In this document: piece by piece, positions 6,017-47,439 of the stretch
Numbering within the stretch: position 1 is the first letter of the stretch
How the letters are laid out: every line of letters begins with the position of its first letter
Assembly: GCF_963921235.1 (NCBI RefSeq)
Contig: NC_086107.1
Span: forward strand, 99,822,001-99,886,000
Source: Mobula hypostoma
Lineage: Eukaryota
Direction: 5' to 3'
Length of the DNA stretch: 64,000 bases
Translations under genes and position numbers: made by a program
The notes under the pieces: model-generated
Seen by the model: the letters and a program-made list of their open reading frames with translations, nothing else
Databases searched by the model: none
Told to the model about the DNA's origin: nothing

Positions 6017-6400
6017 TTCAATTAAATCCCCTTCATTTTTCTGAACTTCGTCGAGTACAGGCCCAGAGACTAAAAGCTAAAAGAAGTGTTAATACTCCGT
6101 TAATTTTCTTTCCCTCGTTACTCGCTGTGCCATAGACTTGCTTCCAGCTTATATTTTTATGCTTAGATCCCAGGACATCGCTAGCCAGTGTTAACCTGCC
6201 CCGGGGCATCTCCTACCAAAAGACCGGGTGGTCAGTGACCACACTGGGGCTCGGAATCTCATTCTCGCCCACAATCTCTCCCAGATCCCGGCGATGGAGC
6301 CAGGCAGTCTAGGCCGAGGTTCCCTGGACTCGCAGCCAGGCAACCGGCCGCTCGCCGACCTTGACCCGACCCCCGTGCAAACTGCACCGCCGCTCCTTAC

Positions 6401-6533
6401 CGGTGTTGGGCACCTCTCGGTACCATGCCCGGTACAACTCCCGCACCCGCCGCTTGGCTTCGCTCTGGTCCCGGGACAGGAACGGCTTCACCACCTTCCC
6501 CGAAGCCGCAACGGCGCGCCCGGCCGCCGCCAT
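6401..6533 (-). CDS. NDUFA6: NADH dehydrogenase 1 alpha subcomplex subunit 6 (LYR family), first coding exon
   Basis: [44 protein letters not shown] matches the NDUFA6 N-terminus ([29 protein letters not shown]). ATG at 6533-6531, phase-1 donor G|GTAAGG at 6401/6400. Downstream exons not found in the window. Confidence 0.95.
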
Positions 6534-6780
6534 TATTTCCACTCAATCGCAACGCCCGCCTCCGGAGGGAGGCCACTGGAAGGTTATTGGTGCGTACCTT
6601 ATGACAATGAGGGGATAACTCCGTGACGTTTTCCCATCTTTGTACTGATTGGTGAACATTAACATCAATCAGTCATCATCTGCACCCTTCTTTGCACTAA
6701 TTGGTGAATATTTGACCTCCGCTGCAGAAATTGTCATTTCCCCTTCATTTATTGGTTAATATTTACATCAATCACAAGCG
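6534..6780 (-). promoter_or_regulatory. NDUFA6 promoter with four CCAAT boxes, a GC box and a CRE half-site
   Basis: ATTGG at 6586-6590, 6648-6652, 6700-6704 and 6751-6755. CGCCCGCC near 6553-6560, TGACG at 6624-6628. CpG-rich around exon 1. Confidence 0.6.
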
Positions 6781-9854: not shown

Positions 9855-10325
9855 ATTCACGAGGATGATTCCAGGAATGAAGGGGTTAACATATGAGGAG
9901 TGTTTGGCAGCTTTGGGCCTGTACTCACTGGAATTTAGAAGAATGCGGTTGTGGGGGGGGATCTCATTGAAACCTACCGAACATTGGAAGGACTAGATAG
10001 GGTGGATGTGGAGAGGACGTTTCCTGTGGTGGGGTTATCCAGAACCAGAGGGCTCAGCCTCAGAATTGTGGGGTGACCCTTTAGAACAGAGGTGAGGAAA
10101 TTTTTTAGCCAGAGAAATAGTAAACCTGTGGAATGCTCTGCCGCAGATTGCGGGTATATTGAGGGTAGAAGTTGATCATTTCCTGATCAGTCAGGGCATC
10201 AAAGGGTATGGCGAGAAGGCAGGTGTATGAGGTTGAGTCGGATCCAGGGTCATCCATGATGGAATGGTGGAGCAGATTCAATGGGCTGAATGGCCTAATT
10301 CTGCTCCTATGCCTTACGGTCTTAA
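9855..10325 (+). mobile_element. CR1 LINE 3' fragment
   Basis: FTRMIPGMKGLTYEE..LGLYSLEFRR-like translation and a CR1-type 3' UTR ending CTGCTCCTATGCCTTA. Confidence 0.8.
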
Positions 10326-11434
10326 AATATTTTTGGGCCGATTGAACAATCTGGCACTGCTGCGATCTCCCGGGGGATGAGGCATGGTCGAGATTCTCTA
10401 TCGATCCCTAACGGCGGAACATGAACCTACGGTCGGCTGCATTGCTCCGAGCCAATTAAAGTATCAGGCAAGATTGAAATTGTTGAGGACGAGCGGTAAA
10501 CAAACACCGTTCAGCACCGTCTGCCTGGGTTTGACCGGTCTCTCTTGCTTCTACCGGCAGGCAGAAGATGCAGAAATCTTGGGTCCCAAGCCGTCAAGTT
10601 CAGAAACAGCTGATGCCTGTGGAATTCTCTGCCCAATGAAGCAATGGAGGCTGCCTCAGTAAATATATTTAAGACAAGGTTGGATAGATTTTTGCATAGT
10701 AGGGGAATTAAGGGTTATGGGGAAGAGGCAGGTAGATGGTCAGATCAGCCATGATCTTATTGAAGGAGGCTCAACGGGCCAGATGGCCGACTCCTGCTCC
10801 TATTTCTCATGTTCTTATGCAACCATTGGGCTTCAGGACTGGCTCACCTCAGCACAGAACGCACTCCGCGATTGTGGACTCACTCTGGGGTCTCTGCAGT
10901 TCATGTTCCTTGTGCTTTTTGTTAACTATTTCTTCCTTCACCATTTGCGTGAGTTGGTCTGAACTGACCGTGCAGTTGTGGCCTGTGGCCATCGGCACAG
11001 TGCTGAGGACTCACTTTTGGAAACTCTACGGTCAATGCCACTTGTTGACTTGTTATTGCTCGCGCGATGTGTTCAGTTTTTTCCCCACACGCACTGGCTA
11101 TTTGATGCTCTTGTTGTGTGGGGTTTTTTTCTGAATGGGCTCTATCGTGCTTCTTTGTTTCGTGACTGCCTGCAAGAAGACAAATCTCAAGGTTGTACAC
11201 TGTAAGCATACTTTGAACTTCTGTGCAGAGCAGTGCAAAAGCAGTCTAAAAACATGGCCTATAAAAGACAACCAAGTACACTGTACCTGTTACCTCTGGG
11301 CCAGGGATTATGGAGCAGCTTAACTGCGGAACAGCACTTGCCGTTTCAAAGCCCCTTTCACCTCAACAGAACTCTGTCGGAAAAGTGACAATCACTCCAG
11401 GCACAGGAAGATCCCACCCACTGCAACACAGTAG

Positions 11435-12170: not shown

Positions 12171-14291
12171 CATAGAAACATAGAAAATAGGTGCAGGAAT
12201 AGGCCATTCGGCCCTTCGAGCCTGCACCGCCATTTATTATGATCATGGCTGATCATCCAACTCAGAACCCCGCCCCAGCCTTCCCTCCATAACCCCTGAC
12301 CCCCGTAGCCACAAGGGCCACATCTAACTCCCTCTTAAATATAGCCAATGAACTGGCCTCAACTGTTTCCTGTGGCAGAGAATTCCACAGATTCACCACT
12401 CTGTGTGTGAAGAAGTTTTTCCTAATCTCGGTCCTAAAAGGCTTCCCCTCTATCCTCAAACTGTGGCCCCTCGTTCTGGACTTCCCCAACATCAGGAACA
12501 ATCTTTCTGCATCTAGCCTGTCCAATCCCTTTAGGATTTTATATGTTTCAATCAGATCCCCCCTCAATCTTCTAAATTCCAACGAGTACAAGCCCAGTTC
12601 ATCCAGTCTTTCTTCATATGAAAGTCCTGCCATCCCAGGAATCAATCTGGTGAACCTTCTTTGTACTCCCTCTATGGCAAGGATGTCTTTCCTCAGATTA
12701 GGGGACCAAAACTGCACACAATACTCCAGGTGTGGTCTCACCAAGGCCTTGTATAACTGCAGTAGTACCTCCCTGCTCCTGTACTCGAATCCTCTCGCTA
12801 TAAATGCCAGCATACCATTTGCCTTTTTCACCACCTGCTGTACCTGCATGCCCACTTTCAATGACTGGTGTATAATGACACCCAGGTCTCGTTGCACCTC
12901 CCCTTCTCCTAATCAGCCACCATTCAGATAATAATCTGTTTTCCTATTTTTGCCACCAAAGTGGATAACTTCACATTTATCCACATTAAATTGCATCTGC
13001 CATGAATTTGCCCACTCACCCAACCTATCCAAGTCACCCTGCATCCTCTTAGCATCCTCCTCACAGCTAACACTGCCACCCAGCTTCGTGTCATCCGCAA
13101 ACTTGGAGATGCTGCATTTAATTCCCTCATCCAAGTCATTAATATATATTGTAAACAACTGGGGTCCCAGCACTGAGCCTTGCGGTACCCCACTAGTCAC
13201 CGCCTGCCATTCTGAAAAGGTCCTGTTTATTCCCACTCTTTGCTTCCTGTCTGCTAACCAATTCTCCATCCACACCAATACCTTACCCCCAATACCGTGT
13301 GCTTTAAGTTTGCACACTAATCTCCTGTGTGGGACCTTGTCAAAAGCCTTTTGAAAATCCAAATATACCACATCCACCGGTTCTCCCCTATCCACTCTAC
13401 TAGTTACATCCTCAAAAAATTCTATGAGATTCGTCAGACATGATTTTCCTTTCACAAATCCATGCTGACTTTGCCCGATGATTTCACCGCTTTCCAAATG
13501 TGCTGTTATCACATCCTTGATAACTGACTCCAGCAGTTTCCCCACCACCGACGTTAGGCTAACCGGTCTATAATTCCCCGGTTTCTCTCTCCCTCCTTTT
13601 TTAAAAAGTGGAGTTACATTAGCCACCCTCCAATCCTCAGGAACTAGTCCAGAATCTAACGAGTTTTGAAAAATTATCACTAATGCATCCACTATTTCTT
13701 GGGCTACTTCCTTAAGCACTCTAGGATGCAGACCATCTGGCCCTGGGGATTTATCTGCCTTCAATCCCTTCAATTTACCTAACACCACTTCCCTACTAAC
13801 ACGTATTTCGCTCAGTTCCTCCATCTCACTGGACCCTCTGTCCCCTACTATTTCTGGAAGATTATTTATGTCCTCCTTAGTGAAGACAGAACCAAAGTAA
13901 TTATTCAATTGGTCTGCCATGTCCTTGCTCCCCATAATCAATTCACCTGTTTCTGTCTGCAGGGGACCTACATTTGTCTTTACCAGTCTTTTCCTTTTTA
14001 CATATCTATAAAAGCTTTTACAGTCTGTTTTTATGTTCCCTGCCGGTTTTCTCTCATAATCTTTTTTCCCCTTCCTAATTAAGCCCTTTGTTCTCCTCTG
14101 CTGAACTCTGAATTTCTCCCAGTCCTCAGGCGAGCCACTTTCTCTGGCTAATTTGTATGCTTCTTCTTTGGAATTGATACTATCCCTAATTTCTCATGTC
14201 AGCCACGGGTGCACTACCTTCCTTGATTTATTCTTTTGCCAAACTGGGATGAACAATTGTTGTAGTTCATCCATGCAACCTTTAAATGCTT
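12171..14291 (-). mobile_element. Young 5'-truncated CR1 LINE (ORF2 RT domain) nested in a Penelope-like terminus
   Basis: One reading frame with KSPGPDGLHP, YRPVSLTS, YLDFQKAFDKVPH, GVPQGSVLGP, FADD and LVRPHLEYCVQFW. Only two in-frame TGA stops (12913-12915, 14194-14196). (TTTCTATG)-like 3' tail at 12171-12186. Confidence 0.95.
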
Positions 14292-14520: not shown

Positions 14521-14756
14521 GCAGATAATGTGAACATCTCTTCCCAGGGCAGTGCATCCATTTGGTGCCACATCTGAACGTTATATGAAACCTCCATTCC
14601 ACAAACATAACTTTTAACAATTGTCGCCGTTTTGACTGAAATACCATTTTCAACAAGGCCTGCACAGGGATAACTCCCCAAAACCCATTTTGTCTGCAGC
14701 CTAAGAAACCACTGGGCTATTAAAACAAATTGTCAACTTATCTTTCTCTGAATGCT

Positions 14757-14766
14757 TTTATTTATT
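14757..14766 (-). terminator. Overlapping AATAAA poly(A) signals of the unrecognised three-exon gene
   Basis: TTTATT on the + strand at 14757-14762 and 14761-14766, about 35 nt past the TAG stop at 14801-14799. Confidence 0.65.
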
Positions 14767-14798
14767 ATTTATAAGAATCTTGGAGGTGTGACAAAAGG

Positions 14799-14970
14799 CT
14801 AATCGAGCAGAGAGCCTGGGCTGGAGGTTTCCTGTGTAAAACTCTGCATCGGGTTATTCTTCAGCTCCTCATTCAGTCGCTTCTCTTCCTCAATGAGGAG
14901 TCTCCAGATCTTCTTCAGATCGTCCAGTGCTTGGAGGTTTTTGGCCAGCTCTCCCTCCTGAATTATGATC
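14799..14970 (-). CDS. Unrecognised gene, last coding exon (coiled-coil-like)
   Basis: Acceptor TTTATTGCAG|G, phase 2. Reads (R)IIIQEGELAKNLQALDDLKKIWRLLIEEEKRLNEELKNNPMQSFTQETSSPGSLLD*. Confidence 0.75.
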
Positions 14971-15204
14971 CTGCAATAAACAGCAGTCCCTGATAGTCTT
15001 GGCTGTAAAAGCAGCCACTCTCCTCTCCCCAATCACACCAGTAAAGCCCCCAAAACACTCCCCAATGTCCCTCCATGGAAATGCAGCATTAGGACCAGTG
15101 GGGATTGATTGACCAGGTCAAGTTTACATCAGCAGAGGGATATTCAGCCAAACCCAATTTACTCCTACTCTCAGCCATCCATATACATCCTAGTCTGGGA
15201 CATA

Positions 15205-15510
15205 AAGTAAAGGCATCCGTTAGTCTTGCAAGACCATGAATCTGCGCCCAGAAAGTCTTCGCTCTCCAGGGCACAGGCCTGGGCAAGGTTGTTTGGAAAA
15301 CCAGCAGTTGCAAGTCTCCCCTCTCCACAACACCAATGTTGTCCAAGGGAAGGGCATCAGGACCCATACAGCTTGGCACCAGTGTCGTCGCAGAGCAATG
15401 TGTGATTAAGTGTCTTGCTCAAGGACACAACACATTCCCCCGGCTGGGGTTTGAACTCACGACCTTCAGGTAGCTAGTCCAATGCCTTAACCACTTGGCC
15501 ACGTGCCCAC
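15205..15510 (-). mobile_element. tRNA-derived SINE
   Basis: Minus strand has an A box TGGCCAAGTGG and a B box GTTCAAACC, then GTGTTGTGTCCTTGAGCAAG. Same family as 55563-55842. Confidence 0.75.
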
Positions 15511-15599
15511 TCACACTCAGAGGTCAACATACACAGCTATTAACAGCATATGGGTAGGAATCAGAATAGTGTTTAATCTGATTGTGTCTCTATTATCAC

Positions 15600-16105
15600 A
15601 ATGAGTCCACACTCAGGTTGGAGGAACACCACCTTATATTCTGTCTGGGTAGCCTCAAACCCGATGGCATGAACATCGATTTCTCAAATTTCTGGTAAAT
15701 CCCCCCTCCCCCACTTTACCATTCCCATTCCCCTTTCCCTCTCTCACCTTATCTCCTTGCCTGTCCATTGTCTCCCTCTGGTGCTCCTCCTCCACTTTTC
15801 CTTCTGCCATGGCCTTCAGTTCTCTCCTAACAGATTCCCCCTTCTCCAGCCCTGTATCTCTCTCACCAATCAACTTCCCAGCTCTTTACTTCACCCTTCC
15901 TCCTCCCATGGTTTCACCTGTCACCTACCACCTTGTGCTTCTTCCTCCCCTCCCCCCACCTTCTTGCTCTGACCTCTCATCTTTTTCTCCCCCAGTCCTG
16001 ATGAAGGGTCTCGGCCCGAAATGCCAACCATTTTACCCTTTTCCATCAACGCTGCCCGGCCTGCTGAGTTCCTCCAGCATTGTGTGTGTGTGTGTGTGTG
16101 TGTGT
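15600..16105 (+). mobile_element. Penelope-like element 3' fragment ending in (TG)n
   Basis: Encodes the LEEHHLIFCLGSLKPDGMNIDF end. Hammerhead core CTGATGA...GAAA at 15998-16021. Confidence 0.8.
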
Positions 16106-16396
16106 TGCTTAGGTATAACATGAGCCTGGGTCAAGGGTTAAGGACAAGAGCCTTGGGTCATTGCGAGAGGACTCAGACAGCCCCAGCTCATCCTGGGTTT
16201 CACTGACCCCCACACACAGCTGGGAGTGCTTTGTCTTTGCCCACCAGCTGGATGTGAGGGTCTCCGCTCCTGTATCCTGCTGTGGCAGTAGGTGACAGGG
16301 GGTGGAGTGGGGTGGTGGTTTGTGATGAATGCCTCACCACAACAGCAAGGATGATCGCTTTATAACTGCCCCAGCAGCGAGCCAGACACTGTGTAC

Positions 16397-16564
16397 CTCT
16401 GTTTGTCTGCAGATTGGTTGGCCCACTCCAGCACGTCGAGGAGATGATTGCGGTACTTCCTGAGGGTCATGGCGGCCGCTAGATCCTGCCTCAGGCGGGT
16501 GCTTGGGTCCCAGTTAAGTGGCAGCATCTGATTCTGCAGGCTCTGATAGTAGCTATACCTTTTC
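16397..16564 (-). CDS. Unrecognised gene, middle coding exon
   Basis: Acceptor TGTGTTTAG|G, donor AG|GTACAC, 168 nt, phase 2-2. Reads (R)KRYSYYQSLQNQMLPLNWDPSTRLRQDLAAAMTLRKYRNHLLDVLEWANQSADKQ. Confidence 0.75.
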
Positions 16565-17412
16565 CTAAACACAGAGCGGAGGGCTGAGCGGTGGGTGGCA
16601 CAGAGGACAGTGAGGAAGGAGGGGGTTGGATTGGGGAGGAGAGGAGCTACAGAGGAGTGGGGACAGCAGGAGGGGCGAAGGGCTTGGGGAAGAGGGGGTG
16701 GTAGATATCCTCATAACATTTTGGCTCTAATCCAAGCACCTCCAGCATCCCACCCACTCTCCCTAATACAACACTGGCCTTATAGCATCACCTGGCCCTT
16801 CTCCAACGTCACCCCACTATCTTACCAACAGCCCATCAACATCCCCCTGCTCTTAGGAGCAGAATTAGGCCATTCAGTCCATCGAGTATGCATGACCATT
16901 CAATCATGGCTGATTTATTTTTCCTTATCTTTCCATTCACCCTGTGACTCTTTGATACCCTTTTCCATTTCTCTGTAACCGGCTCAGTCAACAATCCTCC
17001 CCAGTAACTCTTCTCTATTTCTCGCCTCACTGAGCTATCCCTCGACCCTTATAAGGCCCCAGTTCCACCTTGTGATTAATCTCCCTCCCTCTTCCCCCGA
17101 CCAAGCTTATAGTAATCTCCCAATATCTCTTTGTGTTGCTGCCATTTTTCAGTTGGCATTTTTGACTACGTTAAAAAATGACTTTTTTTAAAGTTCCTCT
17201 CAGTTAGAGGGAAAGAGAGCAAACTTCCTACCAACAGTGGGGTTATAAAAAGAAGCCAGCTTGTTTTGGTGCTACGGGTTGAGGGTCTGGGACTCCCGGC
17301 CTTCTCACAAGTAGCATTGCAGGACCTTTGCGTGAAAGAAGGCACCTCTGCCTTGGTCTGGGCAATCGGCTCTTTGACCCATAAAACCTCGCCCTGCCCT
17401 TTTGTCCGTTAC

Positions 17413-17699
17413 CTGTTCATCTCCAGGACTCCCAGCGGCATTTTCAGATCCAGTTGTGCTATGGCTTCAAACTCTGCCATCCATTCGTTGAGCCAGTTGG
17501 TTGCCCAGCCCCAGTAAGCCACCAGTGTCCTGAAGCACAGCACCCTCCCCAGGAAGGCCGACAAGCTGCAGCCACACTTCAACAGCAGCCGGACAGAGGG
17601 AATGGCCCTCAGCCTCTCACAGCTCCTGACAGTCCACGAATAAAACGCCTCCTCCACTGCCAGGCCTAGCTGGTCGATCTTCTGAAGCTGCTCCAGCAT
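17413..17699 (-). CDS. Unrecognised gene, first identifiable coding exon
   Basis: ATG at 17699 (AAGATGC), donor AG|GTAACG, phase 2. Reads MLEQLQKIDQLGLAVEEAF...LDLKMPLGVLEMN. The frame stays open upstream to about 17865, so the start is uncertain. Confidence 0.7.
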
Positions 17700-18904
17700 C
17701 TTGCCCCATCCCACCACGCCGGGGGCAGCCTCTGCTCTGGTTCCACCGAGTCCCGCCTGCCCCCTTCCCCTTGTGCCCACACTCAGCCGCTGTACACACC
17801 ACCCAAAGGTGCCAACAGGAGCCAGCTGGCACTTACAGCTGCCTTCATCCAAGTCAGTACACACTGTTTGCTTTCAAAACAGAAGATTCTAGAATGGAAT
17901 GGTACAAATATAGAAAGCAGAGGTTCTAGAGAAGCAGAGTGGTACTCCAGAACTGAAAGGGGCAGGCTGTGCATGGGCACCTGGCAATTCTTCCAAGGGC
18001 TGCAACAACAGCAGGAGATAGAGGGTTCAATACCAGAATGGCCATCACCTGCTTAGTACACATCATAGAAACCTTCATGGACTCTGTCTATGTTTCTTTC
18101 TGCCTCAGTAAAGCAGCCAGCATAATTGAGAAACCAACCAACCTGGACATTCTCTCTTCTCCCATCCAGCAGAAGATACAAACGCCTGAAAGCACGTAAC
18201 ACCAGGATCAAGGACAGATTCTATGCTGCCGTTATCAGACTCTCAATTGAATGGATCTCTTGTACAATAAGATGGGCTCTCGACCTCACAATCAACCTCG
18301 TTATAATCTTGCGCTTGCTTTACTGCACTGCACTTTCACTGTGGCCTGTACACTTGATTGTTATTGTTTTACCTTCTTCTACCCCACTGCATCGTGATCT
18401 GTATGAACAGTCCACAAGATAAGCTTTTCACTATCTCAGTACATGTAACAATAATAAACCAATGCCAATGTGGAGCAGGAAGGGTTAATGGGAACAGCAC
18501 GTGGGCAAAGAAATATATTTCAGTAGCAGCACAGTACCTCACAAAAGGTACAATTTAATGTCAGAGTAATGTATACAATATACATCTCGAAATGTTTTTT
18601 CTTCCCAACCATCCACGAAAACAGAGTGCCCCAAGAATAGGCAACAGTTAAATGTTAGAACCCCAAGGTCCCCCTCCCGCGCGTAAGCGGCAGTGAGCGA
18701 CAATCCCCCCTCCCCCCACTGGCAAAAAAAAGCTTCTGTACCGCCATCGAGCATTCAGGCGCCAGCAAGGGAACAGCAAAGACACAGACTTGCAGTCACC
18801 CCAAAGACTACAGTGTTCACCCGGCATTCGACATAACACAGGCTCTCTCTCTCTCCCTAATAAGGGAGAGCGAAGTATCTCCATTTTCACGTAGACTAAT
18901 TAAC

Positions 18905-22953: not shown

Positions 22954-47439
<24,486 letters not shown>

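Follow-up and report, generated by a model that had tools for sequence, protein, structure and literature searches.

An uncharacterised three-exon gene between MCM5 and NDUFA6 in Mobula hypostoma and its relatives in sharks and the coelacanth

The question raised by a 64,000-nucleotide (nt) stretch of Mobula hypostoma DNA (contig NC_086107.1; the whole stretch is called the window, and all positions below are numbered along it) is what is encoded between the genes MCM5 and NDUFA6. An earlier note, made from the letters alone, had joined three coding-like segments in this interval into an unrecognised protein-coding gene, had described its product as a lineage-restricted or fast-evolving, membrane-associated coiled-coil protein, and had named homology searches and AlphaFold modelling followed by Foldseek as checks. 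The segments were respliced, compared with DNA of another organism and used for searches of protein, domain and structure collections, and two homologous proteins were modelled. The locus is, with high confidence, an intact, single-copy gene of three coding exons on the minus strand between MCM5 and NDUFA6, real and conserved. The full explanation offered here, that of an ancient, fast-evolving and uncharacterised gene for a helical interaction protein, is judged probable as a whole.

Gene structure and coding signature

The gene has three coding exons on the minus strand, which also carries MCM5 and NDUFA6. Coding exon 1 (17413..17699, 287 nt, 95 codons plus 2 nt) begins with the ATG at 17699; coding exon 2 (16397..16564, 168 nt) has at its 3' end a block of 14 residues, LRKYRNHLLDVLEW; coding exon 3 (14799..14970, 172 nt) encodes a charged amphipathic C-terminal helix and closes with the TAG at 14801-14799. 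Splicing of the three exons by script from the minus strand of 14700-17900 gave an open reading frame (ORF) of 627 nt, corresponding to 208 codons plus TAG, in which the ATG at 17699 is the first in-frame ATG. The three segments, the GT-AG introns of phase 2, the length of the ORF and the 208-residue product had all been given in the earlier note and were reproduced in this way; the C-terminal peptide quoted there was found in the translation.

Intron 1 (16565..17412) and intron 2 (14971..16396) both run from GT to AG. Their donors read CAG/GTAACG and GAG/GTACAC, respectively, and their acceptors end in TGTGTTTAG/G and TTTATTGCAG/G, each preceded by a pyrimidine-rich tract. Both introns interrupt an AG/G Arg codon after its second base and are therefore of phase 2. 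Two overlapping AATAAA polyadenylation signals (14766-14761 and 14762-14757, minus strand) are located 33-42 nt past the stop, where one had been reported at about 35 nt; the next AATAAA of the minus strand comes only at 14227, outside the gene.

Each exon is open in the frame that is used and in no other, the stops in the other two frames numbering 2-6, 2-3 and 3-4 for exons 1, 2 and 3, respectively. The chance of a fixed frame of 208 codons staying open is about 9e-6. The GC content by codon position (0.55, 0.36 and 0.72, vs 0.51 in the introns) is a strong signature that is typical of coding sequence.

Relatives, conservation and comparison with a related genome

Exon 1 (95 residues) was used as the HMMER query in an exhaustive search against 1.84 billion cluster representatives. 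Eight proteins were obtained at an expectation value (E) of ≤0.001, and two of them were homologues. The first (P0001, 107 residues, 74% identity over 96 residues, E 5.6e-37) originates from a Logan contig of 905 base pairs and ends exactly at the stop expected from read-through into intron 1; because of this coincidence it is probably genomic. The second (P0002) is the uncharacterized protein LOC106706862 of the coelacanth, Latimeria chalumnae (XP_014353861.1, 186 residues), which matched exon 1 with 37% identity (E 4.1e-10). Of the remaining six, P0005 and P0008 were rejected, since each is repetitive within itself and matches the protein at its hydrophobic stretch; P0003, P0004, P0006 and P0007 (26-34% identity in 4-13 matched stretches) were presumed to be of this repetitive kind too.

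The frame is conserved over both splice junctions. The alignment of residues 8-189 of the protein encoded in the window with residues 1-182 of the coelacanth protein (E 2.5e-41) has 187 columns, of which 38% are identical, and it runs through both junctions ungapped; in the family alignment the identity of P0002 to the window protein is 35.5% over 186 aligned positions. A tblastn search with P0002 matched exactly the three exons, in order, with E 8e-16 for exon 1, 1.4e-7 for exon 2 and 1e-5 for exon 3, and found nothing beyond them in the 64 kb at E<1. The profile made from the first alignment recovered P0002 and P0001 together with P0009, the whale shark (Rhincodon typus) model g38298.t1 (151 residues, 67% identity over 151 residues). 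A cluster mate of the latter, P0010, is the hypothetical protein chiPu_0017140 of the bamboo shark Chiloscyllium punctatum (GCC38625.1, 175 residues). Both shark models share the start Met and the join of exons 1 and 2 with the window gene, unlike which they contain no exon 3: P0009 extends to the end of exon 2 and no further, and P0010 terminates in 24 unrelated residues, probably a read-through into intron 2. Since exon 3 is missing from both, the window model is the more complete one.

Three blocks stand out in the alignment. The first (NE..AEF.A.A.LDL..PLG) is encoded by exon 1 and lies near the end of predicted helix 3; the second, LRKYRNHLLDVLEW, lies at the end of exon 2 in helix 4 and does not vary between the coelacanth and the three sharks whose sequences extend over it; the third (L+..W..L.EEEK) belongs to the amphipathic last helix, helix 5. 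The coelacanth protein is collinear with the window protein across all three exons, shares with it LRKYRNHLLDVLEW, NE..AEF.AIA.LDL..PLG and the EEEK-rich last helix, and is likewise without a Pfam family. It differs in being 22 residues shorter, as it begins opposite residue 8 of the window protein and has no counterpart of the 19-residue C-terminal tail, and in the more polar character of the region that corresponds to the elasmobranch hydrophobic stretch.

Judged by sequence, the window gene is the counterpart of LOC106706862, chiPu_0017140 and g38298.t1. As a full-length homologue is present in the coelacanth, the gene predates the split between cartilaginous and bony vertebrates, and the description as lineage-restricted was too narrow. 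On the same comparisons, the family is an old one among jawed vertebrates, evolves fast and is uncharacterised; the rapid evolution proposed earlier agrees with the identities to the whale shark (67%), to the other elasmobranch sequence of 96 residues (74%) and to the coelacanth (35-38%), and the homology check has yielded a full-length relative and no characterised family. The distribution was drawn from the single-sequence HMMER search with exon 1 and from word-limited profile searches: so far the family has been detected in elasmobranchs and the coelacanth only, and divergent relatives may exist in tetrapods or teleosts. Word-based homologue searches with exon 1 gave none among longer lengths, and with P0002 among near lengths only P0002 itself.

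The term "unrecognised" applies in part. Relatives are already catalogued in databases, as unnamed or hypothetical and partly truncated proteins, and what is new is an added member with a complete three-exon model; literature searches under the identifiers "LOC106706862" and "chiPu_0017140" returned no paper. Among the papers listed for genes shared by the coelacanth and cartilaginous fish, none dealt with the three-exon gene.

For the comparison with a close relative, run X5, the DNA of another organism holding 0.42 of the sampled words, was compared with the window over 14600-18000. All three exons were found on single-copy contigs (depth 34-75), and the repeats are in the introns, in agreement with the earlier description of the exons as repeat-free. 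None of the seven listed insertions or deletions (indels) falls in an exon, a 12-nt deletion at 17120 being located in intron 1. These indels, intronic or flanking, account in full for the gaps counted in the three contigs over the exons (21, 5 and 12), and the frame is therefore intact in the relative. The listed substitutions cover exons 2 and 3 and not exon 1 (two contig differences within 16116-16835 are unlisted); ten listed substitutions fall in these two exons, five synonymous and five non-synonymous, and none of them creates a stop. As synonymous sites should make up 22% of the total, this corresponds to a mild synonymous excess in exons 2 and 3 (binomial P 0.049).

Both introns hold very high-copy repeats, at about 16766-16993 in intron 1 and at 15170-16081 in intron 2, the latter with a (CA)n run near 16100; the summed contig depth of these repeats in X5 is 10^5-10^6. 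They are present too in small runs that were guessed to be RNA. By eye, the stretch around 15300-15510 resembles a short interspersed element (SINE) derived from a tRNA.

Predicted protein, proposed role and alternatives

No known domain is present. At curated cut-offs, Pfam gave no family in the exons, in P0001 and P0002 or in seven rows of the alignment, and only noise was seen at E≤10 (INO80E 0.19, Megourin 0.11). A sequence search of the PDB with P0002 gave no match, and the family profile retrieved from it just two COMMD4 rows (E 0.39-0.49, non-significant). The ESM Atlas provided no usable feature match, and its structure rows had template modelling (TM) scores of ≤0.46 and belonged to unrelated bacterial clusters. 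The earlier statement that no family can be assigned thus stands for Pfam, for solved-structure sequences and for folds.

Homologues of the window protein were modelled with AlphaFold2. The coelacanth protein (mean predicted local distance difference test, pLDDT, 60; predicted TM score, pTM, 0.35) and the whale-shark fragment (mean pLDDT 59, pTM 0.27) were both predicted to be entirely helical, with concordant helix breaks at conserved Pro/Gly positions. Predicted helices 1-3 are encoded by exon 1. The best-modelled part comprises the C-terminal helices 85-149 and 153-185 of the coelacanth protein, which are paired in the model as an antiparallel hairpin with pLDDT 71-81; the last helix is amphipathic (hydrophobic moment 0.48-0.61). 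With Foldseek, neither model gave a match against the PDB at E≤0.001. In the coelacanth model, the last 60-100 residues can be superposed on generic coiled coils and antiparallel helical hairpins of solved structures, among them PcfF (6qeq_A), designed helical bundles and DHp domains, with Z 7.3-9.0 and a root-mean-square deviation of 1.4-5 Å, at a sequence identity of just 2-19% and with scores below the level that is common for helical folds. This is a likeness of shape and not of family, and it conveys neither shared function nor shared ancestry.

Several named candidates were considered and rejected. In human, RASD2 and the genes of the helical Apolipoprotein L proteins lie downstream of MCM5, and the three-exon myoglobin gene is a neighbour as well. 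For RASD2 or another Ras-family small GTPase, no Ras or P-loop GTPase domain was found at the Pfam cut-off in the exons or the seven rows, and the earlier exclusion of RASD2 is upheld by the absence of any Pfam family at cut-off in any exon. No ApoL domain was found by Pfam at E≤10 in any member. Myoglobin is unrelated in exon sizes and in sequence, and there was no globin Pfam match. The N-terminus carries, by eye, no hydrophobic leader as a secreted helical cytokine would; for a BH3-only protein, the L..LDD pattern is not kept in the coelacanth and does not match the BH3 spacing.

From the models, the protein is inferred to consist entirely of alpha-helices, about five in number, that are interrupted at conserved Pro/Gly positions. 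A mechanism as a helical interaction module is proposed tentatively, with not quite an even chance of being correct. The conserved blocks of helix 4 (LRKYRNHLLDVLEW) and helix 5 (L+..W..L.EEEK) would face each other in the antiparallel hairpin and constitute the functional core, and a partner, or a second copy of the protein, would be bound through the hairpin surface. The protein would be soluble or at most peripherally bound to membranes and would have an interaction or scaffold role; it would be neither an enzyme nor a secreted factor nor an integral membrane protein.

An integral role in membranes would follow if residues of about 36-70 were inserted as a helical hairpin into the membrane of the endoplasmic reticulum, a lipid droplet or an organelle, with the C-terminal coiled coil in the cytosol. 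The maximum of Kyte-Doolittle hydropathy over 19 residues reaches the usual threshold for a membrane segment (about 1.6) only among elasmobranchs, with 1.64 for the window protein and a range of 1.48-1.94 for the three further elasmobranch sequences, and a conserved LG(R/K) marks a predicted break between helices halfway along the stretch, as in a hairpin. The stretch nevertheless contains Lys and Arg (K, R, R), and the matching region of the coelacanth protein is more polar, the protein-wide maximum of 1.11 falling outside it; as the hydrophobic stretch is not conserved in the coelacanth, membrane anchoring is doubtful, and with it the adjective "membrane-associated" of the earlier note. Of the Cys/Trp-rich hydrophobic stretch described there, the hydrophobicity was retained for the elasmobranchs, while its Cys and Trp residues are mostly not conserved; buried helices of a soluble bundle, moreover, look alike. 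A membrane anchor is on balance unlikely.

Several observations weigh against a constrained gene for a helical interaction module. Both structural models are of low confidence and the alignment spans only about four independent lineages, so that the hairpin and its role are inferred; the best Z of the wide (exhaustive) VIA-align search, 9.0, was obtained with generic helical hairpins, the ordinary helical level of this tool being about 13. The join of exons 2 and 3 has the coelacanth model as its single witness, both shark models being without exon 3. In the comparison with X5, exons 2 and 3 differ at 10 of 340 nt (2.9%) vs 22 of 1007 nt (2.2%) of adjoining non-coding DNA; non-synonymous changes (5 in about 265 sites) have accumulated at nearly the rate seen in the introns, which suggests weak constraint in recent times. 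No sequencing run recorded as RNA contained the stretch. The guessed-RNA runs X19, X20 and X21, which are perhaps DNA and are uninformative on expression, cover the intronic repeats and not the exons, except that X19 has one contig of low word depth (2.76) within the bin 14714-14827; in these small runs, possibly not RNA, no joints at the predicted exon junctions were found. A silent relic, in which the frame is open and the gene is unexpressed or free of selection in Mobula hypostoma, would suit the uncovered exons and the similar divergence of exons and introns, as well as the absence of a CpG island at the 5' end of the gene (CpG observed/expected ≤0.43 over 17001-18250). It is very improbable, however, given that the 208-codon frame, both pairs of splice sites and the polyadenylation signal are intact, that the relative has no exonic indels and shows the synonymous excess, that the GC signature at third codon positions is strong, and that the frame has been kept in at least five lineages, the coelacanth among them; the runs that leave the exons uncovered are small and possibly not RNA. 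A third alternative is that the three exons belong to a larger gene whose other coding exons would lie upstream, where an acceptor is possible near 17865, or downstream; the frame is open 5' of the ATG back to 17873. This is hardly probable at all: the upstream open stretch contains no Met, both shark models begin at the same Met as the window gene, the coelacanth protein starts opposite residue 8 and ends within the C-terminus of the window protein, MCM5 terminates about 5 kb upstream with a stop that closes its C-terminal domain, and AATAAA follows the stop of the three-exon gene. The reading as a genuine spliced protein-coding gene, already made in the earlier note, is borne out by the structure, the coelacanth alignment and the shark gene models.

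With this gene, a family so far known only from automatic and partly truncated predictions gains a complete three-exon model and an origin earlier than the parting of cartilaginous from bony vertebrates. The stretch LRKYRNHLLDVLEW, invariant in a protein that is otherwise 35% identical, provides a handle for finding a binding partner. In a bolder reading, possible and rather doubtful, an ancient jawed-vertebrate family would have been kept only in the slowly evolving cartilaginous fishes and the coelacanth, teleosts and tetrapods having either lost it or altered it past recognition; its helical architecture would be unrelated to characterised families, and the invariant 14-residue motif would dock a conserved partner. 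If the restricted distribution is true, this is an ancestral vertebrate gene that is absent from the usual model organisms and can be studied only in sharks, rays and the coelacanth. The finding bears on no long-standing open question, and uncharacterised genes of patchy distribution among lineages are many.

Neighbouring genes and elements

Neighbours were identified with a Pfam scan of stop-to-stop ORFs with 80 or more residues, which covered the 150 located up to 42 kb out of a total of 221. MCM5 was recognised on the minus strand by the domains MCM_OB (40550-40918), MCM P-loop (29045-29311), MCM_lid (26782-27269) and MCM5_C (23682-24068). The stop-to-stop ORF with its last coding exon (22957..23403, minus strand) contains the end of MCM5_C (PF21933, E 1.5e-12, profile positions 25-59 of 59), and the domain model ends two residues short of the MCM5 stop. 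The stop-to-stop ORF with NDUFA6 exon 1 (6312..6542, minus strand) was found by a scan for the LYR motif (about 6400-6540) and matched solved NDUFA6 chains with E 8.6e-16; this exon had been missed by the Pfam scan of 122 shorter ORFs (E≤0.01) and was caught by the LYR-motif search. The MCM5 domains and the solved NDUFA6 chains confirm the location that the earlier note had given for the gene between the two.

Along the minus strand the order is MCM5, the three-exon gene (about 5 kb downstream), a reverse-transcriptase ORF of long interspersed element (LINE) type and NDUFA6. The LINE-type ORF is a retroelement remnant with an open frame of 426 residues (12916-14193, minus strand; RVT_1, E 8.4e-34). 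For a 52-residue ORF at 10187-10342 on the plus strand, Pfam scored a weak similarity to the serine palmitoyltransferase small subunit (16.2 bits vs a cut-off of 29.8, E 0.008), which is probably due to chance. An intron of MCM5 contains a fragment of a Tc1/mariner-type transposase (24694-25083, plus strand), which matched the Sleeping Beauty helix-turn-helix (HTH) domain with E 6.1e-08, under the Pfam cut-off.

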